Source: Minisyncoccota bacterium
GTDB taxonomy: Bacteria; Patescibacteriota; Minisyncoccia; Phycocordibacterales; Phycocordibacteraceae
DNA: 64,000 nt
Direction: 5' to 3'
Assembly: GCA_036405415.1 (NCBI GenBank)
Contig: DASWXP010000002.1
Coordinates: 556,450-620,449 of the forward strand
How positions within the stretch are numbered: the stretch's first letter is position 1; each line of letters begins with the position of its first letter. The notes under the pieces are model-generated. The model did no database searches. It worked only from the letters and a program-made list of their open reading frames with translations, and had not been told where the DNA came from. Shown piece by piece: positions 17,615 to 55,752 of the stretch. Both the position numbers and the translations under genes were made by a program.

Positions 17615-18621
17615 TGCCCAAGGAACAGATCCTGTTCGCAGGACTCACTACGCTTCGGGTAGGAGGCCCGATTCATGATCTGTTCGAGTGCACGTCCGAG
17701 AATGAGGTTCTGAACGCGATTACGTTTGCACAAGCAAAGCACCTTCCGTGGAGAGTGCTCGGCGAGGGAAGTAACGTCCTGGCCTCAGACGAAGGGTTTG
17801 AAGGAGTCGTGATACTCATGCGTATTCCCGGCATGACGTTTACTGAAGAAGAATCCTTCTCGCTAGTTACCGCTGGTGCGGGCGTGCACTGGGATACGCT
17901 CGTCGAAGAGTGCGCGCAACGGGGACTGTGGGGCCTTGAGAACCTTGCAGGAATCCCTGGAACCGTTGGCGCCTCTCCAGTCCAGAATATTGGTGCGTAT
18001 GGTAGCGAAGTTAAGGACACCATTCATTCCGTAAGAGTCTTGAATACGCGCAGTAATGCTATTGAGGACATGGATAACGCTTCATGCGGCTTCGGATATA
18101 GAGATAGTCTGCTCAAGAGAGACTCAGCACTCATTATCCTAAGCGTCACCTTCAAGCTTTCAAGAAACAGTGCGCCAAGCCTCTCATATAAGGATCTTGC
18201 AGCACGTGCATCAGAAGGAGAGGACCTGTCTACTCCTGCGAAAATCGCAGCGGCAGTGCGCTCGATTCGCGCGCAGAAGTTTCCGGATTTGCATGAGTAC
18301 GGTACGGCGGGCTCCTTCTTTAAGAATCCAACCATTAGTACTGAAGCATACGAAAAGCTCGCATCAGAATACAAAGGGCTGCCAGGATTCCCGAACGCTG
18401 AAGGCGTGAAAATACCGCTCGCATTCGTGCTCGACAAAATTCTTAACCTTAGAGGATACCGAGAAGGAAATGTTTCTCTCTTTGAGCGTCAGCCGCTCGT
18501 ACTTGTCGCAGACCATGGTGCAACGCAGGAGGAGATCGATGCATTCGCGAATGAGATTGCACAACGTGTCTTTGACGCAACGAACATCACTACCGAAAGA
18601 GAAGTACGAACGTTTCCATAA
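17611..18621 (+). CDS. murB: UDP-N-acetylenolpyruvoylglucosamine reductase
   Basis: FAD-binding LTTLRVGGP..., NLAGIPGTVGASPVQNIGAYG motifs. Confidence 0.8.
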   Translation: MMPKEQILFAGLTTLRVGGPIHDLFECTSENEVLNAITFAQAKHLPWRVLGEGSNVLASDEGFEGVVILMRIPGMTFTEEESFSLVTAGAGVHWDTLVEECAQRGLWGLENLAGIPGTVGASPVQNIGAYGSEVKDTIHSVRVLNTRSNAIEDMDNASCGFGYRDSLLKRDSALIILSVTFKLSRNSAPSLSYKDLAARASEGEDLSTPAKIAAAVRSIRAQKFPDLHEYGTAGSFFKNPTISTEAYEKLASEYKGLPGFPNAEGVKIPLAFVLDKILNLRGYREGNVSLFERQPLVLVADHGATQEEIDAFANEIAQRVFDATNITTEREVRTFP

Positions 18622-18804
18622 AAGTTTTTTTCTAAAAATTAATTTTTATTTTTAAAACTTATCCACATATAAAAATATTTCTTACACAAAAAATATTTTT
18701 CAGACGCATACTTATCACTAACACGCATGTGTAAGAAATTTTCGTAAGAAAGATTCTTATCGTGCGGGTCGAAGATATCAGTCATAGCAAAACACTCGAG
18801 ACCT
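18622..18804 (+). promoter_or_regulatory. AT-rich intergenic region upstream of histone-like sORF
   Basis: Strongly AT-biased stretch in a ~60% GC genome; likely promoter region. Confidence 0.35.
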
Positions 18805-18978
18805 ATGGCAGCAAAGAAGAAGACCGTTCGCAAGGCAGCTAAGAAGTCGGTAAAGAAGGCAGCTCCTAAGAAGAAGACTGCAAAGAAGACCGTCAAGAAG
18901 GCAGCTAAGCGTCCGGCAGCAAAGAAGAAGGCTGCGAAGAAGGCTCCTGCGAAGCGCAAGACCGCGCGCCGCAAGTAG
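18805..18978 (+). CDS. small Lys/Ala-rich histone H1-like / nucleoid-associated basic protein (57 aa; missed by ORF track)
   Basis: ATG 18805 to TAG 18976-18978 encodes MAAKKKTVRKAAKKSVKKAAPKKKTAKKTVKKAAKRPAAKKKAAKKAPAKRKTARRK, followed by a hairpin terminator. Confidence 0.5.
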   Translation: MAAKKKTVRKAAKKSVKKAAPKKKTAKKTVKKAAKRPAAKKKAAKKAPAKRKTARRK

Positions 18979-19000
18979 CCCCTCTTCGACCCTCTTATGC

Positions 19001-19028
19001 AAAGCCTCCCGTACGGGAGGCTTTTGCG
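19001..19028 (+). terminator. rho-independent terminator (10-bp stem, GTAC loop, T-tract)
   Basis: aaagcctccc-gtac-gggaggctttt. Confidence 0.6.
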
Positions 19029-19049
19029 GTATAGTGGCCGATACCTATA

Positions 19050-19055
19050 TATAGT
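19050..19055 (+). promoter_or_regulatory. -10-like hexamer TATAGT 7 nt upstream of secA ATG, within CCTATATATAG motif
   Basis: tacctatatatagttattcct-ATG. Confidence 0.35.
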
Positions 19056-19062
19056 TATTCCT

Positions 19063-21588
19063 ATGCCTACTTTCCTCGGTAAACTCTTCTCCAAGAACCA
19101 GTCCCAGGGCTTCGTGAAAGCCGCTGCACCGGTTGTTCAGGCCGCCGCTGCCCTCTCTGACGAGCTTGAGGCGCTTAGCGACCAGGCGCTTAAAGAGCGA
19201 TTTCTCGCCATAAGGAGCCGTGTAGCGGGCGTTCCTGAGGAGACTAAGGATATCGCTGAGACCTTCGCGCTCGTGCGCGAATCAGCACGCCGCACGCTCG
19301 GGGAGCGTCATTACGACGTACAGCTCATCGGCGGACTCGCGCTCGGAAAGGGAAAGATCGCCGAGATGCGCACGGGAGAGGGAAAGACGCTCGTGGCGAC
19401 GCTTCCAGTATCGCTGTTCGCGCTTGCCGGTAAGGGCGTGCACGTCGTCACCGTAAACGACTACCTCGCACGTCGTGACGCAGCTTGGATGGGGCAGGTG
19501 TATGCAGCGCTTGGCCTTTCGGTTGGTGCCGTAACGTCGCAGGGTGCGTACCTCTATGACGCGTCTCATGTTGAGTCTGAGGAAGATAAGGAGCGAGACG
19601 CTGAAGGATCGTTCCGCGTGTTCTATGACTACCTGCGTCCGGTATCGAAGCAGGAAGCATACGCCGCAGACATCACGTACGCGACCAATAATGAGCTTGG
19701 ATTCGATTATCTGCGTGACAATACCGCATACGACGTATCGCAGCTCTCACAGCGCGGCCATCACTACGCTATCATCGACGAGATCGACTCGATACTCATC
19801 GACGAGGCGCGCACGCCGCTCATCATTTCTGGCCCCGCAGGCGACGCCGAAGGTCTGTACGAGCGCTTCGCAGGGATCGCCCGCTCGCTTGTCGAAGGAG
19901 AAGACTACACGGTCGATGAGAAGCAGCGCGCTGTGCAGGTGACCGAAGAGGGTATCCGTAAGGCAGAAGAGGCACTCCATATCGAGAACCTCTACGCAGA
20001 GGGTGGCATGAAGTACGCGCACCATCTTGATACCGCAGTGCGAGCGAAGGCTCTCTTTAAGAAGGACAAGGAATACGTCATTCGCGATAACGGGATCGTG
20101 ATCGTTGACGAGTTCACGGGGCGCCTGCAGCCAGGACGTCGCTGGAGCGAGGGTCTGCACCAAGCCATCGAGGCTAAAGAGGGCGTGCCGATTCAGAAGG
20201 AGACGCGTACGTACGCATCCGTAACGTTCCAAAATTATTTCCGCATGTACGACCGCATTGCGGGCATGACCGGTACGGGTCTTTCCTCTGAGGAGGAGTT
20301 CTTCACGGTGTACGGGCTTGAGGTGGTGCAGGTGCCTACCCATCGCCCGATACAGCGCCGTGACTACGACGATCTCATCTTCCAGAACGTGCCGGGCAAG
20401 TACAAAGCGCTTGCCGCGCATGCCAAGGAGATGCACGAGAAGGGCCAGCCGATCCTCATCGGTACGGTCTCTATCGAGGACAACGAGGTAGTGAGCGAGG
20501 CGCTTACTCAGGCGGGCATTCCGCATGAGGTATTGAACGCAAAGAACCATGAGCGCGAGGGCGAGATTATCGCGAACGCGGGGCGCAGGGGCGCCGTAAC
20601 GGTCGCTACAAACCTCGCAGGTCGCGGCGTCGACATCAAGCTCGGGGGCGCGATTGCTACCCCAGAGGAGCGCGAAGAAGTTCGCTCGCTCGGTGGACTC
20701 GCCGTGCTCGGTACCGAGCGCCATGAAGCCCGTCGTATCGATGACCAGCTCCGTGGCCGCTCTGGCCGTCAGGGCGATCCGGGAGAGACGCGATTCTACG
20801 TGTCGCTCGACGACAAGCTCATGCGCGTCTTCGCATCCGACATGGTGAAGAACGTCATGGGTACGTTCAAGATCCCGGAGGACGAGCCAATACAGAGCTC
20901 GCTCATTACGAAGTCGCTTGAGACCGCTCAGCGCCGTATCGAGGGCTTTAACTTTGATGCGCGAAAGCAGGTACTCTCGTACGACGATGTGCTGAACTCC
21001 CAGCGACTCGCGGTCTATCGCGAGCGCATGACGGCGCTCATGGGCACCGATGAGGAGATCGAAGCCCTGGTACGCGATGCTCTTAATGGAGACGCGGAGG
21101 CGGTCGCTGCGTATGAAGCCAAGCGCGAAGAATACGGACCTGAGGTTTTCGCGACGCTCCTCCGACGCATTGTCCTTCAGGTGACTGATACGCTCTGGCT
21201 CGAGCACCTTGAGACCATGGACTACCTGCGACGCTCCGTATCGCTTCGCGCGTACGGACAGCGCGACCCGCTTATCGAGTATCGAAAGGAGGGACTCGCG
21301 AGGTTCCAGGCGATGCAGGCAGCGGTACGCGCTGCGATCGTTGAAGCTATCCCGCGCATCCGTCCGGCAGATGACGCGCGTATCCGTGCCGAGGAAGAGA
21401 AGACCCGAAGGCAGCTCGTAGCGGCATCCGAAGGGGGCGATGCATCAGTCACAAAGGAGCCGGTCTTGAACGGAAAGGAGTACGGCCGGAATGACGAAGT
21501 GACTATCCGCAAGGGAGACGAGACGCAGACGCTCAAGTACAAGAAAGCGGAGCCGCTGCTCGAGGAAGGGTGGACCATCGTGTCCTAA
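19063..21588 (+). CDS. secA: preprotein translocase ATPase SecA
   Basis: Canonical SecA motifs (GKIAEMRTGEGKTLVATLP, DEIDSILIDEARTPLIISG); ORF-track start 18997 lies inside the upstream terminator hairpin, so ATG 19063 is preferred. Confidence 0.9.
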   Translation: MPTFLGKLFSKNQSQGFVKAAAPVVQAAAALSDELEALSDQALKERFLAIRSRVAGVPEETKDIAETFALVRESARRTLGERHYDVQLIGGLALGKGKIAEMRTGEGKTLVATLPVSLFALAGKGVHVVTVNDYLARRDAAWMGQVYAALGLSVGAVTSQGAYLYDASHVESEEDKERDAEGSFRVFYDYLRPVSKQEAYAADITYATNNELGFDYLRDNTAYDVSQLSQRGHHYAIIDEIDSILIDEARTPLIISGPAGDAEGLYERFAGIARSLVEGEDYTVDEKQRAVQVTEEGIRKAEEALHIENLYAEGGMKYAHHLDTAVRAKALFKKDKEYVIRDNGIVIVDEFTGRLQPGRRWSEGLHQAIEAKEGVPIQKETRTYASVTFQNYFRMYDRIAGMTGTGLSSEEEFFTVYGLEVVQVPTHRPIQRRDYDDLIFQNVPGKYKALAAHAKEMHEKGQPILIGTVSIEDNEVVSEALTQAGIPHEVLNAKNHEREGEIIANAGRRGAVTVATNLAGRGVDIKLGGAIATPEEREEVRSLGGLAVLGTERHEARRIDDQLRGRSGRQGDPGETRFYVSLDDKLMRVFASDMVKNVMGTFKIPEDEPIQSSLITKSLETAQRRIEGFNFDARKQVLSYDDVLNSQRLAVYRERMTALMGTDEEIEALVRDALNGDAEAVAAYEAKREEYGPEVFATLLRRIVLQVTDTLWLEHLETMDYLRRSVSLRAYGQRDPLIEYRKEGLARFQAMQAAVRAAIVEAIPRIRPADDARIRAEEEKTRRQLVAASEGGDASVTKEPVLNGKEYGRNDEVTIRKGDETQTLKYKKAEPLLEEGWTIVS

Positions 21589-25348: not shown

Positions 25349-25687
25349 TACAAATTAAACTTCTGCGCGCAATTACTAATAAATACTTAGTTAGTCCGAA
25401 TAACCGATACGCTCCTATATATAATTGTCTACTTACACACGAAACTAGTTCTGGTAGGAATTTTGTATCCCTTCTGTTGCAAGGGAGTTGAATCTAAGGG
25501 TGGTAATTCTCTTGGATTTGAGTTTAGTGTCTATGCTGCGATGAATTTTTTCGTAATCAGTAGTAATGGATCTTGTTGGCAATTTTTTTCATGATGAGTG
25601 CCTGAAGAATATCCACAAAGAAACATACTAATTAAAAGAAATATCAAGGTAAACTGTAGTTAATTCGGATATCCGACCTACTGCACC

Positions 25688-28600
25688 TTGAACAAACTTC
25701 TTCAAGAAAAATTAATTTCTACGAAAGACGCCTCTGCTCTTTCTGGATACACTTCCGACTATCTTTCACGGCTATGTCGCGAAGGAAAGATTGATGGCAC
25801 GCAGGTCGGAAGAACATGGCTTGTAGATCGTGATTCGCTTGAGAAGTTTATTGCAACGCAGATTGATCGAAAGGCTGAGCTTGCAGAATCGCTTGCACGC
25901 GAGCGCGAGCGCGAGTATCGCTTGAGCAACACGAAATCCATCTCGATGACTCGTTCGATGGAGCGGGGAACGCGGGATGCGGTCAACTCTGTGGTTGCAG
26001 CGTTTGCAAAGGCACGGCTGCCTCACGGTATGCCGGCATTCTCAGGGACTGCTGTTGCTATGGCACTTACCGCAATCGTACTTGCTGGTAGCGCAGCAGC
26101 CGCAGGATCTGGAGTGGTCGCGCGCATGGGTGCCGGTCTTCTCGCGGCAGCGCTCGAGGCTCGAGTCCAGGTACTTGAAGGAGCACACTCACTTGCGATT
26201 GATTCATTAGCGCATCGAGAGACGCTTGCAGAGACAGCGCGCGAAGACCTTGCGCTTGATGAGAATGCATTTGCAAACGTGCAGAGCATAAAGCTTGAAG
26301 AAGTGTCTTCGGCACTTACGCTAGCGATGCGCGACGTGCATGCCCCCGTAGCCCCAACGCAGATTGCATACGAGCGCGCAGAAGAAATCTCTGCTACCTA
26401 TGCGAGCGATACTACGTTTGCAGAAAGCGCAAAGGCAATTGGATCGGCAGTACAGAATCCTAACGTTACAGCCTCTGTTGTGGCTGATGGTCTTATGCGC
26501 ACCTACGCATCGGTTGGTGCGCTTGCGCTCCGCGACATTGAGACGACGCTAAGCGCACATGAGGATGCGGTCACTGCAGCAGGCGAAGGATTGTTCGCGC
26601 TAAGCACCGGCATGCGCGATGGTGCACGTACGCTACCGCTTGCGGTAGGAAGTGCTTTCATAAGAGCGAGCGACGCGTCATTGAGTCTCTACGAACAGGG
26701 TGTCTATGGGTTCGCAGCGCTCTCCCAGGATGTCCCGCATACTCTCGTTGCTGCAGCGCTCGATACTGGCTCCATGGTTGGGGGACTCACACAGCTTGCG
26801 GTCACAGCTGCCCCTCGAGCGTATGAAGATGGGATGATTTCATTCAGTGAGGAGACCTCGCAGCTTGGAATGCGCATATCTGAAGGATCCTTTGCGCTCG
26901 GGGCCAATTCACACGGTCTCGTTTCAGGCCTCTTGATCGCTGAAGACCGCGCAATCGCAGGATTCATGCGCTCTGCTAGCGATACGGTTGCTCTAGCTCC
27001 CGCAGGTACCGGAAGCGCTTCAGCACAGCAGGGAATCGATCTGGTACCAAGCGCCATAACGAACGAAGTGCTGGGAATCGTAGGCAATATCGCGCTCTCG
27101 ATCGAGAACCTGGAGGGAGACATGCTTACCGCGTCTCCGCTCGCGTCTCTTAACCTCGACGCATTCGTTCCAGGATTCCTCAAGAATGTGACCGCGGTGC
27201 TTGCTCGCGCATTTGATAGCGCGCTCCATGGAATCCTCGGACCGCTCGCGGGCTTCTTTGGCGCAGGCGAAGAGGCGGGCATCGCGATCATTCCTGGAGA
27301 CGGTGCGAACATCCCGGGTCCTGGTGACCGCGGCTCGAGTGAGGCTTCGATCGTGTACAACGGGCCGGTAACAATCATCCGTAATGAGTATCCTTCCGTA
27401 ACCTACGGAGGTGTACCTCAGGCATACGTCGATGAACGATTCGACTTCCTCCGTCGCACGCTCTACAACCGCATCGAAGACGTTGCTGATGACGATGATG
27501 TCGGCATCACGACGCTCGACGGCCAGACCGGCAATGACATGTTGCTTAATAATCCGACGATCGTCGGAGGGACCATCACCGACAGCGAACTCGATGTCGC
27601 AACCTCGACCGTAACCGGCTCGTTCACCGTAAACGGGAACGCATCGATCACCGGCGACCTCACTGCTACGAATGCAACCACGACGAATTTCTACGCGACT
27701 GCCGGCTCCTTCGCCTCGGCGACCATCGATGTGCTTACCGCGCCGTCTGCGACCATAGCGAATCTCATCGTCACGAACAGCACCACCACGAACGCGACGT
27801 CGACCAATCTCTACGTTTCCAATCTCGCAGGCCTCGTAGCGACGATTACCGATGCGTTCTTTACGAACGTCACCGCATCGCTCGCGACGCTCACGAACGC
27901 GGTCGTAACGACGCTCACCGCTACGAATGCGACACTCACGAACGCCACGTCGACCAACGCGACCACCACCGGGTCGCTCGCGCTTACGTACGTGACCCCG
28001 TCACGCCTCCTGTCCGTAGACGCGTTCGGGAAAGTCGTCGCGACCAATCTCGCGTCATGGGTAACCGGCTCAGCGAACCAGATCACGGTGACGGATACGG
28101 GCGCAGGCGGCATCCAGCTCTCGCTCCCGTCAGTACTCGTCTTCGGCACATCCTCTCCGACCACGCTTGCCGGAAACGGCGCTACCAGCACCTTCGGCGG
28201 CGGCATCTACGCGCCGCGCATCGAGGCGGGAGAGTACATCGCAGGCCCGTACGTCCTCGCCACCTCGACCACCGCAACCTCGGCGTTCTCAGGCAACATA
28301 GCGATCGGTCGGAACGCCACGATCGGTACCAGCGCGTCCGATTCGCTCGTCGTGAATGCGACCGTCGGCTCTAACTTCGTCCCGTCTCTTAATAACGCGT
28401 ACGATCTTGGCTCCGCCGCGAATAACTGGCGCCGTATCTACGTAGATGAAGTGGTAGCGAACAACCTCTCCGCAGCGTCCACCTCGATCGCAGGGACGGT
28501 ATCGAGCGACTTCTCCATAAACTCTGATAACGCTTCGAACGATACGGAGGACATGAGCCTCACGTTCAATCGCGGCGTCGCGTCCCCGAACGCTATCCTC

Positions 28601-31600
28601 GCGTGGAACAGCACGACGAAGCGCTTCGAGTTCAACATGCCGGTCTTCTCCGCAAACGGCATCTTCACAAACGCGACCACGAGTAACCTAGCCGTTACGA
28701 ACTTCACGCTCGGCGGTTCCACCTTTACCTCGCTCCTCGGATCAGGACTCTCGAACGTTGGGGGCGCACTTACCGCAGACCTCGGCGCGCTCGACGACAC
28801 GTTCTTCAGGCAGGACGGGAACTCTTTCGGCGCTACCGCAATCCTTGGCACGAACGACAATAACAATCTCGCGTTTGAGACGAACGGGTCCACGAAGATG
28901 ACCCTCCTTGCCAACGGCTACCTCGGTATCGGCACCACCTCTCCGACGACCCCGCTTTACGTCTCGAGCGACTTCCCGCGCATCACCATCGACAGGAATA
29001 CGAACAACAGCGGCAACTCGCTCATACTCTTCAACCAGGAGTCCGTACTCAAGGCCGGGATAGGAATCGCCGGAGGAACCAACGGCGTGATTGCTGGAAG
29101 CGTATCCGGAGACCTCGTCGCGCGCACTCAGGGAGGGAACATGTACTTCTCGAACGATGGCACGGGAGCGACCTCGCAGCTCTCGATTATCAATAACGGG
29201 AACGTCGGTATCGGTACCGTGACGCCATCGACGCTCTTGCATCTTCATACGGCCGGCGGAGGTGACGCACCTCGCCTTAAGTTCACGAACGGCACCACCG
29301 GCACGACCGCGACAGACGGCGCGTTCGTGGGCATCTCGAACACCTCGCAGCTCGATGTGTGGAACTTCGAGAGCAATTCCTTGCGGTTTGCCACAGCGAA
29401 CACCCTGCGGATGGTAATCGATGCTACGGGAAATGTAGGAGTAGGAACCTCGTCTCCAGCTTTCGCGGCGATATCAGCCCGGTATCTGGCGGTTGACGGG
29501 TCAAGTCTCGGAGCGGATATTCCTGGTGCGGTCGGTGCCGGAGGCAACATCACAGGAACTACGAATAACATCGGCCAGTTTGCGTTCTACAACAACGCGC
29601 TTTCAACCGCAGAGAAGCGCAACGCGACGATTGTAGGAACGAACGACGGGGCGCTCAATAGCGGTCTCATCAGATTCTTCACGGCGAATGCGGGCACGCT
29701 AGGCGAACGCATGCGCATCACGTCAACCGGCAACATCGGTATCGGCACCACAACTCCGGATCGAATGCTCTCTGTGGCGGGTACGGGACTCTTCACCGGC
29801 CTCACGACCTTCCTCTCCGGCTTTGACATCGGAGGCTCGACGTTCACGTCGCTTCTCGGGAGCGGCCTCACTAACGTAGGCGGCGCGCTTACGCTTGACC
29901 GCACGGGAGACTGGACCGGAACATTCGATGGACAGGAGGGGTCGTACTATCTTGCGCGCGCGAACCATACCGGTACGCAGCTAGCGTCTACCATCTCTGA
30001 TTTCGCAAGCACCGCGCGCGGACTCTTCAGCTCGACCGCGACGGGCCTTACCTATACTTCAGGCACGGGCGTCTTTTCTCTGACATCAGGCTACGAGATT
30101 CCGCTGACCGCTTCAACTACCAATTGGAACACCTTCTATAACACCCCTTCGACCCGCATCACCGCAGGTTCTGGCCTTGCATGGGCAGGCAACACGCTCT
30201 CAGCAGACCTTAATACCCTCGACGACACGTTCTTCAGGCAAGACGGCAATTCCTTCGGAACGACCGCAACGCTTGGTACGAATGACAGCAATGCGCTCGC
30301 ACTTGAGACCAATGGATCAACCCGGCTCACCATCACGTCCTCAGGGAACGTCGGTATCGGAACGAGCTCGCCGACGCATGCACTGTCCGTAAACGGAAAT
30401 GCCTATATACAAGGAGGAATCGGAAGCGGCATCGAGCCGGCTTCAGTGCCGGGCATACTCTTGCTTAACCGCACGGGCGGCGATCCGGCCATAGTGTTCT
30501 ACGAGAATGGTTCCCAGGTCGGACAGCTGCGCGGAGACGGCACCAACAACAAGATCCAGTTCAGTAACGCGCTCGCAACCCGCTTCCCGTTCACTCTTGA
30601 TCTGACGACAGAGAACATCGGTATCGGCACCACAACTCCGGAGGGCCGCCTTACGCTTGTGGCGAGCTCGACAGGAGACTCGCTTGTCATCGCAAGCTCG
30701 ACCGGCGCTCGGCAGCTTACGGTCAATACGAATGGCTCCCTAATCTTCTCTTCAAGCGGGCAGTCCTACAAGCAGGTTACGGGCGTAGATGAGGACGGGC
30801 CTTCGATCTTCCTTAACCGCACGCTCGGCAATGAAGCCACGGCAAACGAGCACGGCATCATAGACCGCAACACCTTCACGCGCGCGACCAAGGCCTATAA
30901 CTCGTACGACTCACAGCCGTACTTTACGGGTACGAACGACTACGATCACTACGCAGGATTCCAAGCCCGGGGCGCGATGAACTCGACCGGCACGCTCAGC
31001 CGTTATCACGGCTTCGCATCGACGCCGAATGTCGCCGCTGGTACGGTGACGAACCTGTACGGCTACAGCGTCTACGACGCGGTCGGTGCCGGAACGGTGA
31101 CGAACAACTACGGCCTCCACGTACAGAACCTTACGAAGGGAACGAATAACTTCGCGATATACACCGACGGAACTACAAAGTCCTATTTCGGCGGAAACGT
31201 CGGCATCGGTACCACATCTCCAGCGTCACTACTCCACGTCTCTTCTAACACATCTACGAGTTTTACCGTCGAGCGCGATAGCGTTACTGATCCTGGAAAG
31301 ATCCAGCTCATTACTGAATCGGCAGAGAACAGCATTTACTCGAGAACTAACACAACAGCCGCAAAGAACTTGCGATTTGTAATCGGTACTGCCGAGCGAA
31401 TGCGCATCGATACGTTAGGCAATGTCGGTATCGGAACGACGTCGCCATCCCGACTGCTCTCCGTTGGTGATGACGGAACATACTCCGCGTACTTCTCCGG
31501 TCGCGTGGGTATCGGAACGACATCGCCTACCCGCGGTCTAGTTCTTACTTCTGCAACAACGGTTAACGCAGCCCTCCAGCTTGCTTATACGGCCTCAGGC

Positions 31601-34600
31601 GGACGCACCTGGGACATCAATCCGTTCCGAAACGGCGTGAGCAATGCCGGATTCGAGATTTACGATGTCACCGCAGGAGCGAGCCGCATTGCGATTGACG
31701 CGTCAGGGAACGTAGGTATCGGCACTACATCTCCTTCTGCGAAGCTTGATGTGTACGGGAACGCAATCCTTTCATCGGCAGGCTCTACCCTCAGTTTCGT
31801 TAAGAGCGGCGCAGGAGAGACGCCTGCAATCCTCTTTACGCACTCGACGAATGCCGGCGGCTCCCGCATAGTCTCGAGCGGCTCGAACGCGCAGGCGCTG
31901 ATCATCGATCTTGATCAAGATGCAACCTCAAATTTCGATGCATTCAGCATCAGGGCGAACAATACGAGCACGCGATTCCACATTGATAATGCGGGGAATG
32001 TCGGTATCGGCACCACATCTCCATTCGCCAAGCTTCATGTATATGGCGGCGCATCAGGAGTTACTACGCCTTCTGCTACCGCAGACGATTTCGTTGTTGA
32101 AGGCAGCTCGACGAGCCAGAACGGCTTTTCGCTCCTCGGTCCCGACAGCGCGTACGCTTACCAAGTATTCGGTTCTCCCTCAGACAGCTTTGGCGCGTTC
32201 TCGCGGTGGAACTTTAATAATAAGCTTTTTGAAATAGGAACCGCAGATGACACCGGTGCCGCAGACCTTGCCTTCGTGACCGGAAACTCTTCCGAGAAAA
32301 TGCGCATTCTTGATAATGGGAATGTCGGTATCGGCACAACCACGCCAGGGCAGCTGCTCCATGTATATGGCGGAACGAACCCGGCTATCCGCGTTACCGG
32401 AAGCGGCAACACGAGCGCGTACATGGACATTGCAACCGATGGAACCGGCACGGCTCAGACGCGATACATAACAGGGAATACGGCACGGTGGGCCGTAGGT
32501 GTCGACCCGGCAGCGAATAACAATTTCGTGTTCGCGAATAGCTCCGCTGTTACGAGCGGTCAAAGGATGGTGCTTACGACTTCTGGAAATCTCGGTATCG
32601 GCACTGTCGCGCCGCAGACGGCACTTTCTTTCGCGACAACGTCTGCCGCATCCGGCATAACGCTCTATCAGACAGCTGACGAGACGACGAATTACGCGCG
32701 GGGACGCATGTACTACAACGGAAGCGTGTTTACGCTTCGCACGGAAAAGGCAGGATCAGGAGCCGATACGCCGCTCAGTATCTACCCATCAAACGGCATC
32801 GCGAATATCTACTTCTCAACATTAGGCACAGATGGAAATACCGGCTTCGTGCAGATCGGCGCTGCCAATAACACACAGAACCGCATCAGCGTGCATCTCG
32901 GTGTCGGCTCGCACGGCGCTTCTGTAGGAACGCAGACACAGGTCGCTATCCAGCCTACGATTGCGCAGGCTGGAACTGCGAACTACATTGCGCTCTCCAT
33001 CAAGCCGACCGAATCATCGCTCGGATCCGGAAGCAGCTATCTGTTCCAGGCGGGGACCGCAGCCAATCCTGGGATGTTTAACATCACGAATGCTGGAAAC
33101 GTGGGTATTGGAAACTCGAATCCTGGCTCGCTTCTGAATGTTTCTACCGATACGGTCGGCGCAGCAGCTTTCATGGTCAATACTGTAACGGGGGGCCAGG
33201 CACGATGGCAGATTACAGCGGCAGGTTCGCCAACAACCTCGCGCTTCATAATGTCTGCGCGAGACAGCTCGAACAACACTGCTGTGTCCATCGATCCAAC
33301 GGGAACAACCTATTTCAATACTGGAGGCAATTTCGGTATTGGCACTTCCAGCCCGTCACGCAAGCTTACGGTTGAAGGCGACGCATCTGTCTTGTTCCGC
33401 CTCGATCGAACCACGACGGTTAACAGCTATAATACGATTCAATTCAACAGCCCTTGGACAGGTGGAAGCTACACAGCACAGATAGGAACGAAGGCAGAAA
33501 GTACGTATGCCAATAGCTACACGTACATCTCGGCTGATAATACGAACATTCACCTCGCGGTAACCACTGCGGGTAACGTGGGCATCGGCACCGTCAGTCC
33601 AACCGACAAGCTTGCGGTGCTCGGAGACACGAATGGATACATAAACGCTCGCGTACGCAATGATAATGCCGGATCTTCAGCGTATGCGATGATCGGCATC
33701 AATGCTTCAGGCAACTCCTGGGGCATGCGCATGGGGTCTGCAGCAAACAACAGCAACAGGCTTGATTTCGTCTCAGACGCCTTCGGTACGCCTGTAGAAA
33801 GGTTGAGCATCACGACAGCAGGAAACGTCGGTATAGGTACCACGACTCCTACCGCACTGTTCCAGGTAGGAAGCGCGACTCAACGCGGCTTCAAAGTGTA
33901 TGGAAATAATAGTCCTTATGGGACGGTGCTCGCCGGTGATGCTGGTGGTTGGGCGTTTGGGTATAATTTTGAAGGTAATGCAGGAGCAGCTCTCGGTGGA
34001 TTCGGAGCGTTAGGGAACTCAAATAGCCTGGACAGTTACTATATCGGTACGTTCGCGAATCAGAGGATGACTATCCTTAGCGGGGGTAATGTCGGTATCG
34101 GGACTACAAGCCCGTACGCTGGACTCACGATTGCCCGCGGAGGCGGTACTGCAGCATTTGCCGACACAATCCTTTCGCTAAACAGCTCATCGAATGTTGA
34201 GCGATTCAGATTCTCCGGAGACGGTTCGATGCAGTGGGGAACAGGTGCGGCAAACGGCATCCTTTCTTGGGATACAAATCTCGCGATAGTGGGGGGAAGC
34301 GCAGGGAACGCCCTTTCTCTACGTGCGAACAATGCAGACGTTGTCCGCATAACAACTGCAGGCAACGTCGGCATCGGCAACTCGGCGCCAACCACACCAC
34401 TTGATACGCAGGGCATAATCACGACGCGCTCCGCGGCAGCGGATACGCCGGGCGCGCCAACCGAAAGCATTCGCATGTCGCTTACGGGATATTCGCCAAC
34501 AGACAGATATAGGAATTCGATATTCAACTCGGTATCGACCATCCCCGCTTCTTCGGTAATGCAGTTCAGGGTTAATAATGGTGATACGACGCAGGCGACG

Positions 34601-37600
34601 GTAATGACGCTGCTGGGCAATGGAAACGTAGGCGTCGGCATCACGAATCCAAGCTACCGATTCACCGTTCAGGATACGACGACAGACGGTATCGCAGGAC
34701 GATTCTCTCAGTCAGGAACGGGCACGCCCTTTGGTGTCTACTCGTCAGCAACAGGCGCGGGAACGCAGAACGTTGCCGGCTACTTCCAGACAAGCGGCGC
34801 AACTACGAATATCGGCGTAAGTGCTGACGTTGCGTCAGGCGCGAACAACTACGCCTTCTACGCAGCCAATACTGCAAAATCGTACTTCGCAGGCAACGTC
34901 GGCATCGGCGTTACGAGTCCCGCAAGCCAACTCACGGTTGGAAAGACAACCGGAGGTGTCATATCGATCACGACCGCAGGAACCGCGGGTACCACCGCCT
35001 CGCCGCTTCCGGCGACCCTCAACTTCGTTGGGTACGGAGAAGTCACCAAGGGCGCTATCAGCGTGCAGGACCGAACCGGAAACGTCCTCGGAGGATGGAT
35101 GAAGTTCCAGACCGCCGACAGCTCTGACGTGCTTCAGGACCGAGTAATGATAGATAGGGCGGGCAACTTCGGTATCAATACGATGACGCCGCAGGCAACG
35201 CTCGTGGTGGGCGGCGCGCAGAGCGGCAATGCAGGCCTCGAGATCGTTCCAGGCTCCGGCATCGTCGCGCAGTCGTACAACCGAAACACAAGCGCGTATG
35301 CAAGCCTCAGCTTCGACGCGTCAGCAATCGCATTCCGCCCGAGCGGCTCGACCATGCTTACGGTCAACGGCGCAGGAGCTGCGGTGGGAACCGCGAGCGT
35401 CTCTGACCGCTTCGTCGTGGAGGTCGCGACCAATAAGCGTCTCGGTGTAGAAGAGATCACGAGCTCGGCAATCAGCGACTTCTCGACGGGCGGCGCGAGC
35501 ATCCAGTTCTCGCGCGCGAGCGATGGGGCAGATAACCTGACCGGTATATTCACCTACAACAATTCCGGAAACACGAGCATTAACCTCGCCATGGCAGCAC
35601 GCAGCGACTTGGTGTTCGCAGCTGGCGGAGGCGCAGCGTACACGAACTCTCCAGAGCGCATGCGCATAACGAGTTCCGGTAACGTCGGTATCGCTACGTC
35701 CACTCCTGGCCAGGCGCTCACGGTTGCAGGAAGCACGTACATAACCGGAGGTCTTGGCATCGGTAACGTCAACACGACTGCAGGCTCGCTCCTCACCACC
35801 TCGCACATAACGATGGGAACGCTCTCGCAGTTCTCTGCTGCAGGCGGCTCAGCACTCACGTCGCCAGCAAACGGCGTATGGCGCGTAACCAACAACGCAG
35901 GAACCGACTTCAGTCGCTTCCAGTTCGGCGGAGGCACTTCAGCATTCCCGTCTATCAAGCGCAATGGCGCAGGTCTCGACTTCCGCCTGGCGGATGATTC
36001 CGGATATGCGACCACGACCCATCAGGGCGGTCTCTTCCTTGGAAATGTCGGTGTGGGAACCACGACGCCAGGGTACAGGCTTAGTGTTGGAGGCGATATC
36101 AATTTTACCGGCAGCCTTTATCAGAACGGCGTCGCGTTCGGCGGCTCGTCACAGTGGACGACGAGCGGAAGTAACATCTACTACAACACTGGCAATGTCT
36201 CGATTGGTACGACCACAACGTCATCCACAACGAAGCTCTTCGTGGTAGGTCCGAACACTGGTACTGTCGCATTCTCGGTTGGCGATAGGTTTAGGGTTGA
36301 TGGCCTAGGAAATCTTTTCTGGGGCCAAACCGCAGGAACTGTTAGCGGCATTCTTTCATCTGCTGCGAATGGTGACGTAACGATGGGTTCTCAGTTTGCT
36401 AATAGAGACTTGTACATTCAGACAAGTGCATTTAACGCTATCCAAATCTACGGAGGTGTTACCGGCACGCTAGGAAACATCAAGCTTGGCGCATATGGAG
36501 CGGGTACACTCCAGACAGACGGTGCCGGAAACGTCACTGCTTCATCGGATGAGCGCCTCAAGGATATTCAAGGCAATTTCTCGAGAGGGCTTGCAGATCT
36601 CATGGCCATAAATCCGATTAATTACCGATGGAACGCAGCTTCAGGGTTCGATACTGAAGGCATGTACAGCGGATTCTCAGCACAGAACGTCAAAGATTCT
36701 ATCCCTGAAGCGGTAGGAACAGATCCGAGGGGATATCTGACGTTGTCGGATCGACCAATACTTGCTGCTACCGTGAACGCAGTGAAGGAGCTCAATGTCC
36801 GCACGCTTTCACTCGCACCAGCGGCTCAGAACCAGGAAGCACACTCGCTCGCGGTATCCGCAGACGCGTCCGTAGCAGGCCTCCTCACGGTCTCCGGCAC
36901 CGGCTCATTCCTCGGTACCGTAGAAGCAGCGTCATTCCTGACGACTGCAGACGCAGGACTTCCTGAGAACGTGCTCACGGCAGGTCAGGCAGACCTCTAC
37001 AAGATGGCGCGCTTCGCCATCTCAGAGATCAAGGACCTCAAGGAGCGCACGGACCTCCTTGCGGTACGCATCGACGACATCGAGACCCGTGTTGCCGCGC
37101 TCGAGGCACAGGGACAGAGCGCCTCCTCGACCATGGCCGGGGCCGTTGGCCTCACGGCAAGTTCCCTCAAGAGCGCGCTCGAATCCTTCGGTATCTTCAT
37201 CGAGAACGGCATCGCGCAGTTCAATACGCTCGTATTCCGACAGCTCGCGGTTGCCAAGGACGAAGCGGGCGACTCTTCCGCAGGCAGCGTAACCATCCTC
37301 GCGGGCAACACCGTGACGCAGGTGCAGAACCCGTACGTGCTCCCGACCTCAAAGGTATTCGTCACCTTCACGAGCCCGGTGGTTGGCGCGTGGTACATCA
37401 GCCACAAGGAAGCAGGCAGCTTCCGCGTGACGCTCGCCGAGTCCCAGCCTTCTGACGTCTCCTTCGACTACTTCATCCTCCAGACCGAAGGCCAGCTCGC
37501 AAGCCCGGGCGCCGCAGGACCGAGTCAGCAGAACCAGGTCCCGACGCCGGCACCGCAGCCGTTCCAGCCGGTGTTCCCGCAGGACGGGGGAACCACGACG

Positions 37601-37981
37601 CCAGCAACCTCAGGCGACACCACGCCGCCATCCATCTCGCTTAACGGAAGCGCCGCTATCGAAGTAGGGCAGGGAGGCTCTTGGAACGATCAGGGCGCAA
37701 CAGCTTCAGACGACGTTGACGGCGACCTCTCGAGCCATATTCAGGTATCAGGCTCCGTTGATACGGCAACGCCTGGCCTCTACACCGTCACGTACTCCGT
37801 ATCGGACGCTGCGGGTAATCAGGCGAACGTATCACGCATCGTGACGGTTACTGCAGCGCCACAGGCACCAGCACCAGCTCCAGCTCCGGCTCCGGTGCCT
37901 ACACCGACTCCGGAACCAGCTCCGGCTCCAGCACCTGAACCTGCTCCAGCTCCGGAACCAGCACCGGCACCCTCCGTATAG
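25688..37981 (+). CDS. giant (4097-aa) membrane-anchored surface fibre protein: N-terminal HTH_17-like module, TM helix, T/N-rich region, ~25 GNVGIGTTSP repeats, Peptidase_S74-like intramolecular chaperone domain, coiled coil, DUF5011 Ig-like domain, Pro/Ala/Glu tail
   Basis: Single uninterrupted ORF; only available start is TTG 25688 (in-frame TAA at 25661); domain calls from motif recognition (see findings). Confidence 0.7.
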   Translation: MNKLLQEKLISTKDASALSGYTSDYLSRLCREGKIDGTQVGRTWLVDRDSLEKFIATQIDRKAELAESLAREREREYRLSNTKSISMTRSMERGTRDAVNSVVAAFAKARLPHGMPAFSGTAVAMALTAIVLAGSAAAAGSGVVARMGAGLLAAALEARVQVLEGAHSLAIDSLAHRETLAETAREDLALDENAFANVQSIKLEEVSSALTLAMRDVHAPVAPTQIAYERAEEISATYASDTTFAESAKAIGSAVQNPNVTASVVADGLMRTYASVGALALRDIETTLSAHEDAVTAAGEGLFALSTGMRDGARTLPLAVGSAFIRASDASLSLYEQGVYGFAALSQDVPHTLVAAALDTGSMVGGLTQLAVTAAPRAYEDGMISFSEETSQLGMRISEGSFALGANSHGLVSGLLIAEDRAIAGFMRSASDTVALAPAGTGSASAQQGIDLVPSAITNEVLGIVGNIALSIENLEGDMLTASPLASLNLDAFVPGFLKNVTAVLARAFDSALHGILGPLAGFFGAGEEAGIAIIPGDGANIPGPGDRGSSEASIVYNGPVTIIRNEYPSVTYGGVPQAYVDERFDFLRRTLYNRIEDVADDDDVGITTLDGQTGNDMLLNNPTIVGGTITDSELDVATSTVTGSFTVNGNASITGDLTATNATTTNFYATAGSFASATIDVLTAPSATIANLIVTNSTTTNATSTNLYVSNLAGLVATITDAFFTNVTASLATLTNAVVTTLTATNATLTNATSTNATTTGSLALTYVTPSRLLSVDAFGKVVATNLASWVTGSANQITVTDTGAGGIQLSLPSVLVFGTSSPTTLAGNGATSTFGGGIYAPRIEAGEYIAGPYVLATSTTATSAFSGNIAIGRNATIGTSASDSLVVNATVGSNFVPSLNNAYDLGSAANNWRRIYVDEVVANNLSAASTSIAGTVSSDFSINSDNASNDTEDMSLTFNRGVASPNAILAWNSTTKRFEFNMPVFSANGIFTNATTSNLAVTNFTLGGSTFTSLLGSGLSNVGGALTADLGALDDTFFRQDGNSFGATAILGTNDNNNLAFETNGSTKMTLLANGYLGIGTTSPTTPLYVSSDFPRITIDRNTNNSGNSLILFNQESVLKAGIGIAGGTNGVIAGSVSGDLVARTQGGNMYFSNDGTGATSQLSIINNGNVGIGTVTPSTLLHLHTAGGGDAPRLKFTNGTTGTTATDGAFVGISNTSQLDVWNFESNSLRFATANTLRMVIDATGNVGVGTSSPAFAAISARYLAVDGSSLGADIPGAVGAGGNITGTTNNIGQFAFYNNALSTAEKRNATIVGTNDGALNSGLIRFFTANAGTLGERMRITSTGNIGIGTTTPDRMLSVAGTGLFTGLTTFLSGFDIGGSTFTSLLGSGLTNVGGALTLDRTGDWTGTFDGQEGSYYLARANHTGTQLASTISDFASTARGLFSSTATGLTYTSGTGVFSLTSGYEIPLTASTTNWNTFYNTPSTRITAGSGLAWAGNTLSADLNTLDDTFFRQDGNSFGTTATLGTNDSNALALETNGSTRLTITSSGNVGIGTSSPTHALSVNGNAYIQGGIGSGIEPASVPGILLLNRTGGDPAIVFYENGSQVGQLRGDGTNNKIQFSNALATRFPFTLDLTTENIGIGTTTPEGRLTLVASSTGDSLVIASSTGARQLTVNTNGSLIFSSSGQSYKQVTGVDEDGPSIFLNRTLGNEATANEHGIIDRNTFTRATKAYNSYDSQPYFTGTNDYDHYAGFQARGAMNSTGTLSRYHGFASTPNVAAGTVTNLYGYSVYDAVGAGTVTNNYGLHVQNLTKGTNNFAIYTDGTTKSYFGGNVGIGTTSPASLLHVSSNTSTSFTVERDSVTDPGKIQLITESAENSIYSRTNTTAAKNLRFVIGTAERMRIDTLGNVGIGTTSPSRLLSVGDDGTYSAYFSGRVGIGTTSPTRGLVLTSATTVNAALQLAYTASGGRTWDINPFRNGVSNAGFEIYDVTAGASRIAIDASGNVGIGTTSPSAKLDVYGNAILSSAGSTLSFVKSGAGETPAILFTHSTNAGGSRIVSSGSNAQALIIDLDQDATSNFDAFSIRANNTSTRFHIDNAGNVGIGTTSPFAKLHVYGGASGVTTPSATADDFVVEGSSTSQNGFSLLGPDSAYAYQVFGSPSDSFGAFSRWNFNNKLFEIGTADDTGAADLAFVTGNSSEKMRILDNGNVGIGTTTPGQLLHVYGGTNPAIRVTGSGNTSAYMDIATDGTGTAQTRYITGNTARWAVGVDPAANNNFVFANSSAVTSGQRMVLTTSGNLGIGTVAPQTALSFATTSAASGITLYQTADETTNYARGRMYYNGSVFTLRTEKAGSGADTPLSIYPSNGIANIYFSTLGTDGNTGFVQIGAANNTQNRISVHLGVGSHGASVGTQTQVAIQPTIAQAGTANYIALSIKPTESSLGSGSSYLFQAGTAANPGMFNITNAGNVGIGNSNPGSLLNVSTDTVGAAAFMVNTVTGGQARWQITAAGSPTTSRFIMSARDSSNNTAVSIDPTGTTYFNTGGNFGIGTSSPSRKLTVEGDASVLFRLDRTTTVNSYNTIQFNSPWTGGSYTAQIGTKAESTYANSYTYISADNTNIHLAVTTAGNVGIGTVSPTDKLAVLGDTNGYINARVRNDNAGSSAYAMIGINASGNSWGMRMGSAANNSNRLDFVSDAFGTPVERLSITTAGNVGIGTTTPTALFQVGSATQRGFKVYGNNSPYGTVLAGDAGGWAFGYNFEGNAGAALGGFGALGNSNSLDSYYIGTFANQRMTILSGGNVGIGTTSPYAGLTIARGGGTAAFADTILSLNSSSNVERFRFSGDGSMQWGTGAANGILSWDTNLAIVGGSAGNALSLRANNADVVRITTAGNVGIGNSAPTTPLDTQGIITTRSAAADTPGAPTESIRMSLTGYSPTDRYRNSIFNSVSTIPASSVMQFRVNNGDTTQATVMTLLGNGNVGVGITNPSYRFTVQDTTTDGIAGRFSQSGTGTPFGVYSSATGAGTQNVAGYFQTSGATTNIGVSADVASGANNYAFYAANTAKSYFAGNVGIGVTSPASQLTVGKTTGGVISITTAGTAGTTASPLPATLNFVGYGEVTKGAISVQDRTGNVLGGWMKFQTADSSDVLQDRVMIDRAGNFGINTMTPQATLVVGGAQSGNAGLEIVPGSGIVAQSYNRNTSAYASLSFDASAIAFRPSGSTMLTVNGAGAAVGTASVSDRFVVEVATNKRLGVEEITSSAISDFSTGGASIQFSRASDGADNLTGIFTYNNSGNTSINLAMAARSDLVFAAGGGAAYTNSPERMRITSSGNVGIATSTPGQALTVAGSTYITGGLGIGNVNTTAGSLLTTSHITMGTLSQFSAAGGSALTSPANGVWRVTNNAGTDFSRFQFGGGTSAFPSIKRNGAGLDFRLADDSGYATTTHQGGLFLGNVGVGTTTPGYRLSVGGDINFTGSLYQNGVAFGGSSQWTTSGSNIYYNTGNVSIGTTTTSSTTKLFVVGPNTGTVAFSVGDRFRVDGLGNLFWGQTAGTVSGILSSAANGDVTMGSQFANRDLYIQTSAFNAIQIYGGVTGTLGNIKLGAYGAGTLQTDGAGNVTASSDERLKDIQGNFSRGLADLMAINPINYRWNAASGFDTEGMYSGFSAQNVKDSIPEAVGTDPRGYLTLSDRPILAATVNAVKELNVRTLSLAPAAQNQEAHSLAVSADASVAGLLTVSGTGSFLGTVEAASFLTTADAGLPENVLTAGQADLYKMARFAISEIKDLKERTDLLAVRIDDIETRVAALEAQGQSASSTMAGAVGLTASSLKSALESFGIFIENGIAQFNTLVFRQLAVAKDEAGDSSAGSVTILAGNTVTQVQNPYVLPTSKVFVTFTSPVVGAWYISHKEAGSFRVTLAESQPSDVSFDYFILQTEGQLASPGAAGPSQQNQVPTPAPQPFQPVFPQDGGTTTPATSGDTTPPSISLNGSAAIEVGQGGSWNDQGATASDDVDGDLSSHIQVSGSVDTATPGLYTVTYSVSDAAGNQANVSRIVTVTAAPQAPAPAPAPAPVPTPTPEPAPAPAPEPAPAPEPAPAPSV
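28900..36250 (+). repeat. about 25 degenerate coding repeats (~240-300 nt each) each containing a G-N-[VIL]-G-[IV]-G-T-T-[ST]-P motif
   Basis: Motif recurrences read directly from translation (e.g. GNVGIGTTSPASLLHV, GNVGIGTTSPSRLLSV, GNVGIGTTSPFAKLHV). Confidence 0.7.
36542..36810 (+). other. Peptidase_S74-like intramolecular chaperone/autoprotease domain (tail-fibre/endosialidase C-terminal chaperone type)
   Basis: ASSDERLKDIQGNF...LMAINPINYRW...GFSAQNVKDSIPEAV matches the conserved SDxRLK Ser-Lys dyad region of S74 domains. Confidence 0.6.
37624..37852 (+). other. DUF5011-type bacterial Ig-like domain
   Basis: PPSISLNGSAAIEVGQGGSWNDQGATASDDVDGDLSSHIQVSGSVDTATPGLYTVTYSVSDAAGNQANVSRIVTV. 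Confidence 0.55.
37856..37978 (+). repeat. Pro/Ala/Glu-rich C-terminal tail encoded by short tandem ccagct/ccggct/ccggaa units
   Basis: APQAPAPAPAPAPVPTPTPEPAPAPAPEPAPAPEPAPAPSV. Confidence 0.5.
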
Positions 37982-55679: not shown

Positions 55680-55752
55680 GCCGGGATAGCTCAGTTGGTA
55701 GAGCAACGGTTTTGTAAACCGTAGGTCGCGAGTTCAAGCCTCGCTCCCGGCT
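55680..55752 (+). tRNA. tRNA-Thr (anticodon UGU)
   Basis: Cloverleaf folded by hand: acceptor GCCGGGA/TCCCGGC, D stem GCTC/GAGC, anticodon stem ACGGT/ACCGT with loop TTTGTAA, T stem GCGAG/CTCGC with loop TTCAAGC; 73 nt, CCA not encoded. Confidence 0.85.

Follow-up and report, generated by a model that had tools for sequence, protein, structure and literature searches.

Introduction

Bacterial proteins rich in lysine and alanine and likened to histone H1 are a known kind. The described systems that lie closest to the protein dealt with here are the following: (i) Hc2 (HctB), whose length differs between strains by whole Lys-rich repeat units (PMC2848022); (ii) the chlamydial protein Hc1 (HctA), the translation of which is held back by the small RNA IhtA (PMC3469542, PMC4355289); and (iii) AlgP and PhaF, whose repeat regions have been termed H1-like (PMC9239181, PMC12818456). 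To these must be added the C-terminal domain of the eukaryotic linker histone H1 itself.

Here, a minimal stand-alone CPR form of such proteins is described. It is encoded in a window of 64 kb, this being the whole stretch of DNA that was analysed. The genomes of CPR/Patescibacteria are tiny and, to our knowledge, the chromatin proteins of these bacteria are essentially unstudied. A full-text search of the available literature library returned no paper containing both "Patescibacteria" and "histone H1".

The small ORF and its product

The gene order around the small open reading frame (ORF) is Wzy_C/TPR protein, murB, small ORF, secA, obg and gatB. A protein from a Candidatus Paceibacterota (Patescibacteria/CPR) MAG matches the MurB of the window with 100% identity. 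The small ORF (Table 1) encodes the 57-aa peptide MAAKKKTVRKAAKKSVKKAAPKKKTAKKTVKKAAKRPAAKKKAAKKAPAKRKTARRK, which is exactly the peptide quoted in an earlier, first-pass annotation of this DNA. It contains 24 Lys, 16 Ala and 5 Arg residues (51% Lys+Arg, 28% Ala), its repeat style is a KKxx tetrad, and its only apolar residues are Ala and Val; the computed pI is about 12 and the computed net charge about +28. Neither a signal peptide nor a hydrophobic face was found in the peptide. In all frames of the 64-kb window, no other Lys-rich stretch is present. Single-sequence AlphaFold2 places helices at residues 2-19 and 23-46 (pLDDT 81), interrupted at two of the three prolines, a prediction that weakly suggests helix propensity. 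Codon usage, for which the first-pass annotation had suggested a comparison with core genes, was compared with that of the neighbouring genes and spoke for the gene: all 24 Lys codons are AAG, against 81% AAG in the neighbours.

The earlier description of the gene as unannotated is correct only in part. Gene callers predicted the exact 57-aa product on five Logan contigs, and orthologues are already called as genes in ENA, JGI and NCBI records. Elsewhere the gene was mis-called or missed: one record carries the antisense ORF, another (L009) an overlapping ORF in another frame, and three NCBI-derived contigs have no call at this place.

Table 1. Features of the locus, in window coordinates
Feature	Position	Strand	Remarks
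TTATCCACA, perfect DnaA-box consensus, candidate activator/regulator site	18659..18667	+	centred at about -57 from the predicted transcription start
UP-element-like AT-rich spacer, 38-39 nt in all distinct loci, without canonical -35	18668..18706	+	
-10-like hexamer CATACT	18707..18712	+	family consensus nATAMT; A2 and T6 invariant
P1, 5'-proximal RNA hairpin, ~18 bp, GUAA loop	18724..18766	+	close to where the transcript is predicted to begin
Conserved unpaired tract: invariant GGGTCGA, then RATAYYA	18766..18780	+	alignment
P2, GUCAUAG (18781-18787) able to pair with CUAUGGC (18803-18809), AUG inside	18781..18809	+	possible 7-bp helix
Lys/Ala-rich protein CDS, 57 aa	18805..18978	+	ATG 18805, stop TAG 18976-18978
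Intrinsic-terminator hairpin: A-tract, 7 G+C-rich pairs, GUAC loop, U-tract	19001..19025	+	
secA promoter-like element (GGTATAGT ... TATATATAG) and true secA start, ATG 19063	19030..19065	+	alignment
Antisense Phe/Ala-rich ORF, 151 aa; shadow of Lys/Ala codons, not a gene	18639..19094	-	mechanical ORF list

Conservation in relatives

Two sets of relatives were compared. For the murB-synteny set, ten homologues sharing 54-81% identity with the MurB of the window were taken together with their genomic surroundings. A Lys/Ala-rich plus-strand ORF lies between murB and secA in nine of these ten contexts, and the contig of the tenth (L005) stops short of the ORF; counting the window, the ORF is present in 10/10 murB-synteny loci that reach its position. 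Orthologue lengths in the nine relatives are 57, 59, 61, 62, 23, 37, 53, 44 and 24 aa. The metagenome set comprises ten loci retrieved with an upstream DNA pattern that contains the TTATCCACA box and GGGTCGA, and all ten carry a Lys/Ala-rich ORF of 41-74 aa which starts 38-41 nt after GGGTCGA. A contig scan with MurB matched a single locus, a distant one from Terriglobia.

MA(A)KK opens every orthologue, and a cluster of Lys/Arg residues, as a rule KRK, closes it. Between these ends, whole KKxx-type units have been gained or lost, always in frame, which gives an overall length range of 23-74 aa. Among the 14 distinct sequences, all indels are in-frame, ATG and stop are conserved, differences at codon positions 1/2/3 number 658/419/1471, and pN/pS is 0.06-0.54. 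The ORF, as judged from these alignments, is evidently under purifying selection, and we regard it with high confidence as a real protein-coding gene, one conserved across a clade in which MurB is only 54-81% identical to the window copy. The first-pass annotation, which took it for a genuine plus-strand gene, had named relatives without an intact ORF as the finding that would count against it; an intact ORF was present in every locus reaching the position.

The upstream DNA

The GC content falls to 0.28 at 18600-18799, compared with about 0.55 in the flanks. The AT-rich promoter region described in the first-pass annotation thus exists, but it holds far more than that description suggests, namely a conserved cassette with a box, a hairpin and a helix that had been overlooked. 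The box TTATCCACA occurs as a perfect copy only at this place in the 64 kb, and it is invariant in 11/11 murB-synteny loci, a set that was not selected for the box. The metagenome loci give no independent support to the box or to GGGTCGA, because the pattern by which they were picked contained both.

From the end of the box to the start of the -10-like hexamer there are 38-39 nt in all 19 distinct loci. An invariant TA(G/A) follows at 18719-18721, 5-6 nt past the hexamer, and the predicted transcription start lies at about A18720. A sigma-70 consensus scan of the window found no full promoter at the small ORF, and at a spacing of 16-18 nt from the -10-like element there is nothing that fits a canonical -35.

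Another element stands before the box in some relatives. In L006, L011, L015, L016, L018, L020 and L021, a perfect palindrome (CACGAAGAAATATTTCTTCGTG type) with a T-run after it lies 20-60 nt upstream of TTATCCACA; it probably terminates transcription of the upstream gene. No such palindrome stands before the box in the window, and only A/T tracts are found at 18622-18658.

The leader RNA

Identity in the 72-nt leader is 62-99%, against 31-40% at the third codon positions of murB (66% in the closest relative, L003); in these alignments the leader is clearly conserved well above neighbouring neutral sites. Its main structure is the hairpin P1, the loop of which is usually GUAA or GCAA across loci. 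In single-sequence folds of 16 loci, P1 reaches -14 to -21 kcal/mol on the plus strand, and the minus strand is weaker in 15 of them; the fold in the window has z = -3.1. On an alignment fitted to the structure model and made of related sequences, pairing extends to 96% of the P1 cells (slid controls, 50-68%), changes on both sides are seen in 14 cells (controls, 1-4), and 33 cells are G.U. When a covariance model was made from 15 loci, it also found the hairpin in the held-out loci L021-L023. The aligned loci leave little doubt that P1 covaries.

P1 is followed by the tract beginning with GGGTCGA, a heptamer that is invariant in 11 murB-synteny loci, and then by the helix P2. Seven P2 pairs are possible in 15/15 loci, and 5 bp only in L023. 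Pairing is kept through changes in L014 (GCCGUAG/UUAUGGC) and in L009 (GCUAUAU/AUAUGGC); the helix is weak (about -6 kcal/mol), and these two changed lineages constitute its support. Judging by the pairing, P2 could hide the start codon. Another helix proposed by RNAalifold, GGUC/GACC, was rejected: it shows no covariation and is missing in L009 and L010.

The leader reaches the gathering score of no Rfam family, and at E <= 10 there are only implausible sub-threshold matches, none of them over the plus-strand leader. The leader motif also had no match in a viral contig collection. By its sequence, the upstream leader/promoter cassette looks like a previously undescribed one that matches no described RNA family.

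The terminator and the secA start

The small ORF is followed by a hairpin with the arms AAAGCCUCCC (19001-19010) and GGGAGGCUUU (19015-19024), a GUAC loop between them and U19025 next. A Rho-independent terminator is a G+C-rich hairpin directly followed by a U-tract on the transcribed strand, and this is the arrangement found here. The minimum free energy is -24.9 kcal/mol for 18976-19040 (z = -2.9). In the window the U-tract has just four U before a G, and a consensus terminator scan did not list the hairpin at 19001-19025, because its U-tract of four is below the threshold of five. All orthologues keep the same architecture of A-tract, G+C stem, loop, complementary stem and U-tract, the latter being longer in relatives. 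The stems themselves differ (GCCUCCC, CCUCCC, CACUCCC, ACUCCC, GACCUCCC and CCCCCGC), and the comparison clearly points to a hairpin conserved via compensatory changes. The GTAC-tetraloop terminator which the first-pass annotation had assigned to the gene is thereby upheld.

Downstream, the mechanical ORF list extends secA into the terminator hairpin, to 18997. The first-pass annotation had called this extension an artefact, rightly: gene callers place the start at 19063 (position 6259 of L001 corresponds to window position 19063), and the SecA N-terminus encoded from there, MPTFLGKLF... (MPTFLGKLFSKNQ), is conserved. On the evidence of the alignment, secA starts at 19063 and not at 18997.

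The DNA just upstream of secA contains a conserved element, GGTATAGT(G)CC...ATACC TATATATAG, at window positions 19030-19056. In L010 and L014, TATAGT lies 8 nt before the ATG, and a hicB-like gene of L011 has TGGTATAAT 6 nt before its ATG. Such elements at 6-8 nt from the ATG in these three loci suggest that leaderless or near-leaderless mRNAs may occur in the lineage. No Shine-Dalgarno sequence was recognisable in the 30 nt upstream of six genes of the window (15434, 17611, 19063, 21669, 22697 and 25688).

The space between the small ORF and the next gene is not always empty. In L011 (548-980), a hicB/hicA-like pair, identified by eye from translations, lies between the terminator and the next gene. 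In L016 (20-437), ORFs beside the small ORF resemble a Phd/YefM-type antitoxin module, likewise by eye from translations; this contig is short, and no secA is visible on it. The idea that L011 and L016 represent a different genomic context was dropped: the difference in L011 is a HicAB-like toxin-antitoxin pair inserted before secA. The intergenic space after the small ORF looks like an insertion hotspot.

Farther along the window, 25688-37981 (+) is taken up by a giant ORF that opens with TTG and has 4097 aa. Upstream of it come DNA of low GC content (0.45 at 24-26 kb) and a tRNA-Asn, and the GC skew reverses locally where the ORF lies. The tRNA-Asn(GTT), of 77 nt, was reported by ARAGORN at 25445-25521 (+); Rfam at gathering score lists only a tRNA-Thr at 55680, and the tRNA-Asn may be either unusual in its make-up or a spurious prediction.

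Strand assignment

Two antisense frames are free of stops in every locus because of the composition of the ORF, and the open antisense frame has wobble positions in common with the plus frame. For that reason pN/pS (dN/dS) was dropped as a discriminator of strand, and the decision was therefore based on ORF boundaries, the terminator and G.U pairs. The antisense stop-to-stop spans range from 30 to 165 aa across loci, with neither start nor end conserved, and the antisense ORF crosses both the terminator and the conserved leader. The plus ORF has a conserved ATG context and stop, and the terminator U-tract and the G.U pairs of P1 fit the plus strand only. The 151-aa antisense ORF of the mechanical list is, in consequence, the artefact that the first-pass annotation had taken it for.

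Family membership of the protein

The first-pass annotation had likened the peptide to the C-terminal tail of histone H1 and to proteins of the Hc1/AlgP type. The likeness to the H1 tail stands as regards composition and repeat style, but membership of the family was not obtained in any test; the Hc1/AlgP assignment found no support. The only profile that ever surfaced for the peptide is HC2, with 10.2 bits for PF07382 (cut-off 40) and 11.4 bits for NF038052 (cut-off 135), and the best HC2 score among ten orthologues is 10 bits. The Burkholderia-type histone H1-like profile NF038053 gives 7.8 bits against a cut-off of 80. The Hc1 domain (Pfam Hc1) was not matched by the peptide or its orthologues even at E <= 10. 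For the Linker_histone winged-helix domain there was no match in Pfam or among PDB sequences. The 57-aa sequence contains no KPAA motif and no further domain, and no ribosomal-protein or RNA-binding family was matched in Pfam, NCBIfam (E <= 10) or PDB.

An exhaustive phmmer search against 1.8 billion representatives found no homologue of the peptide, a word-indexed HMMER search with it gave no match, and among PDB sequences there was none either. These HMMER results carry little weight, since composition correction suppresses such sequences and the exact peptides are absent from the clustered collection.

Proposed function

On balance, the small ORF is probably its own transcription unit, encoding a domain-less Lys/Ala polycation that would bind nucleic acid, most likely DNA, and whose expression looks to be under tight cis-regulation of a new type. 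The steps of such a unit could be as follows. Transcription would begin at ~18720 from a -10-like element without a -35, and TTATCCACA, fixed 38-39 nt upstream of this element, would be used by DnaA or another factor. The leader, of ~85 nt, would open with a long hairpin, whose likely role is mRNA stabilisation or protein binding; the short helix that closes the leader would pair with the start codon, so that translation would be gated, and transcription would end at the 19001-19025 hairpin. The protein, with no folded domain, would act as a non-specific polycation that neutralises charge and compacts or coats the nucleoid of these Paceibacteria (CPR).

These parts of the proposal are not equally firm. 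There is good reason to regard the protein as a nucleic-acid-binding polycation, and it is plausible, by analogy, that it condenses the nucleoid. We infer that its target is most likely DNA rather than RNA or polyphosphate, the model for such targeting being the histone H1 C-terminal tail or chlamydial Hc2. A leader that hides the AUG would be the cis counterpart of the control of HctA by IhtA. The DnaA box in the promoter, for its part, would fit a link to replication. A bolder version, which we consider speculative and on the whole unlikely, is that the cassette is a new Paceibacteria device in which a promoter activated or repressed by DnaA (with the box at -57) and a leader RNA composed of the 5' hairpin, the GGGUCGA tract and the AUG-covering helix tie a minimal, domain-less H1-tail-like protein, a principal organiser of the nucleoid in such ultra-small cells, to replication or the cell cycle.

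Alternative functions

That the target is DNA cannot be read from the composition by itself, because similar repeats bind other partners: RNA in PhaF and polyphosphate (polyP) in AlgP. Hence, the polycation might associate with RNA or with ribosomes, whether as an RNA chaperone, a translation factor or an accessory ribosomal protein, and the leader would then be its autoregulatory binding site. We give this a minority chance that deserves to be kept in mind. RNA-binding proteins that regulate themselves classically have a conserved, structured leader in which the start codon is occluded, and to that extent the autoregulatory look of the leader somewhat favours RNA binding. Moreover, the disordered KPAA-repeat region of PhaF binds specific mRNAs and activates their translation (PMC12818456), and the lack of a Shine-Dalgarno sequence at neighbouring genes makes unusual helpers of initiation conceivable. 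Set against this are the lack of any ribosomal-protein or RNA-binding family match in Pfam, NCBIfam and PDB and the length range of 23-74 aa; in view of such three-fold variation, a non-specific coat fits better than a fixed ribosomal site.

An association with polyP granules or another polyanion, of the AlgP type, is improbable. AlgP, a Lys/Ala/Pro-repeat protein called "H1-like", sits on polyP granules and spaces them (PMC9239181), but its KPAA motif is absent from the peptide, and polyP genes do not adjoin the small ORF in the loci examined.

An exported or host-directed role is very improbable. In this case, an epibiotic CPR cell would use the product as a cationic peptide with antimicrobial or cell-penetrating action, hence the position beside secA. 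The peptide is indeed short, strongly cationic and always encoded upstream of secA, but it lacks both a signal peptide and a hydrophobic face, and its ORF has its own terminator. In addition, toxin-antitoxin genes or ~200 nt of other DNA lie between the small ORF and secA in L011, L016, L014 and L021. Given the terminator and this inserted DNA in relatives, the small ORF is not co-transcribed with secA, and neither export nor a functional link with secA is likely.

That the product is not the small plus-strand ORF, the locus harbouring instead the antisense ORF, a non-coding RNA or a replication origin, can be given hardly any credence: one gene caller does prefer the antisense ORF, whose frame has wobble positions in common with the plus frame, and a perfect DnaA box does adjoin AT-rich DNA, but the antisense boundaries are not conserved and its span runs into terminator and leader, the plus ORF has a conserved ATG and stop with in-frame indels only in 14 distinct sequences, and an origin at 18.6 kb was rejected on its single DnaA box, the absence of a GC-skew inflection there and the promoter-like, constant distance of the box from the -10-like element.

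Significance

If the peptide is indeed a DNA-coating polycation, it would be about the simplest chromatin protein conceivable, consisting of a tail only. Such proteins are probably under-counted, since annotation pipelines miss or mis-call the small gene and HMMER-based homology searches, blind to sequences of this composition, do not see it. The cassette also offers a handle on regulation in organisms not yet grown alone. As for annotation, secA should be taken from 19063, and the antisense ORF of 151 aa should be left out.

Comparison with known systems

Hc1 (HctA) resembles the small protein in being small and very basic. It has a conserved N-terminal Hc1 domain, which the small protein does not have, and it is controlled in trans by the sRNA IhtA, while control here could lie in a cis helix at the AUG. 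The KPAA regions of AlgP and PhaF are likewise disordered Lys/Ala-rich repeats whose number varies between species, but both proteins have an N-terminal domain and 9 to ~30 KPAA units, and the small protein has neither.

The likeness to the histone H1 C-terminal domain lies in a composition of about half Lys/Arg together with Ala, Pro and Thr/Ser, in a predicted helix-prone, proline-interrupted chain and, by analogy, in a presumed action through charge neutralisation of DNA. Linker histone H1 has a winged-helix globular domain, whereas the small protein is a stand-alone "tail"; common descent cannot be shown.

Hc2 (HctB) is, like the small protein, built of Lys/Ala/Arg-rich low-complexity repeats and varies in length by repeat units. 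The differences are of size, unit and lineage: Hc2 has 165-237 aa and pentamer repeats and is chlamydial, whereas the protein described here has 23-74 aa and a KKxx tetrad and belongs to Patescibacteria.
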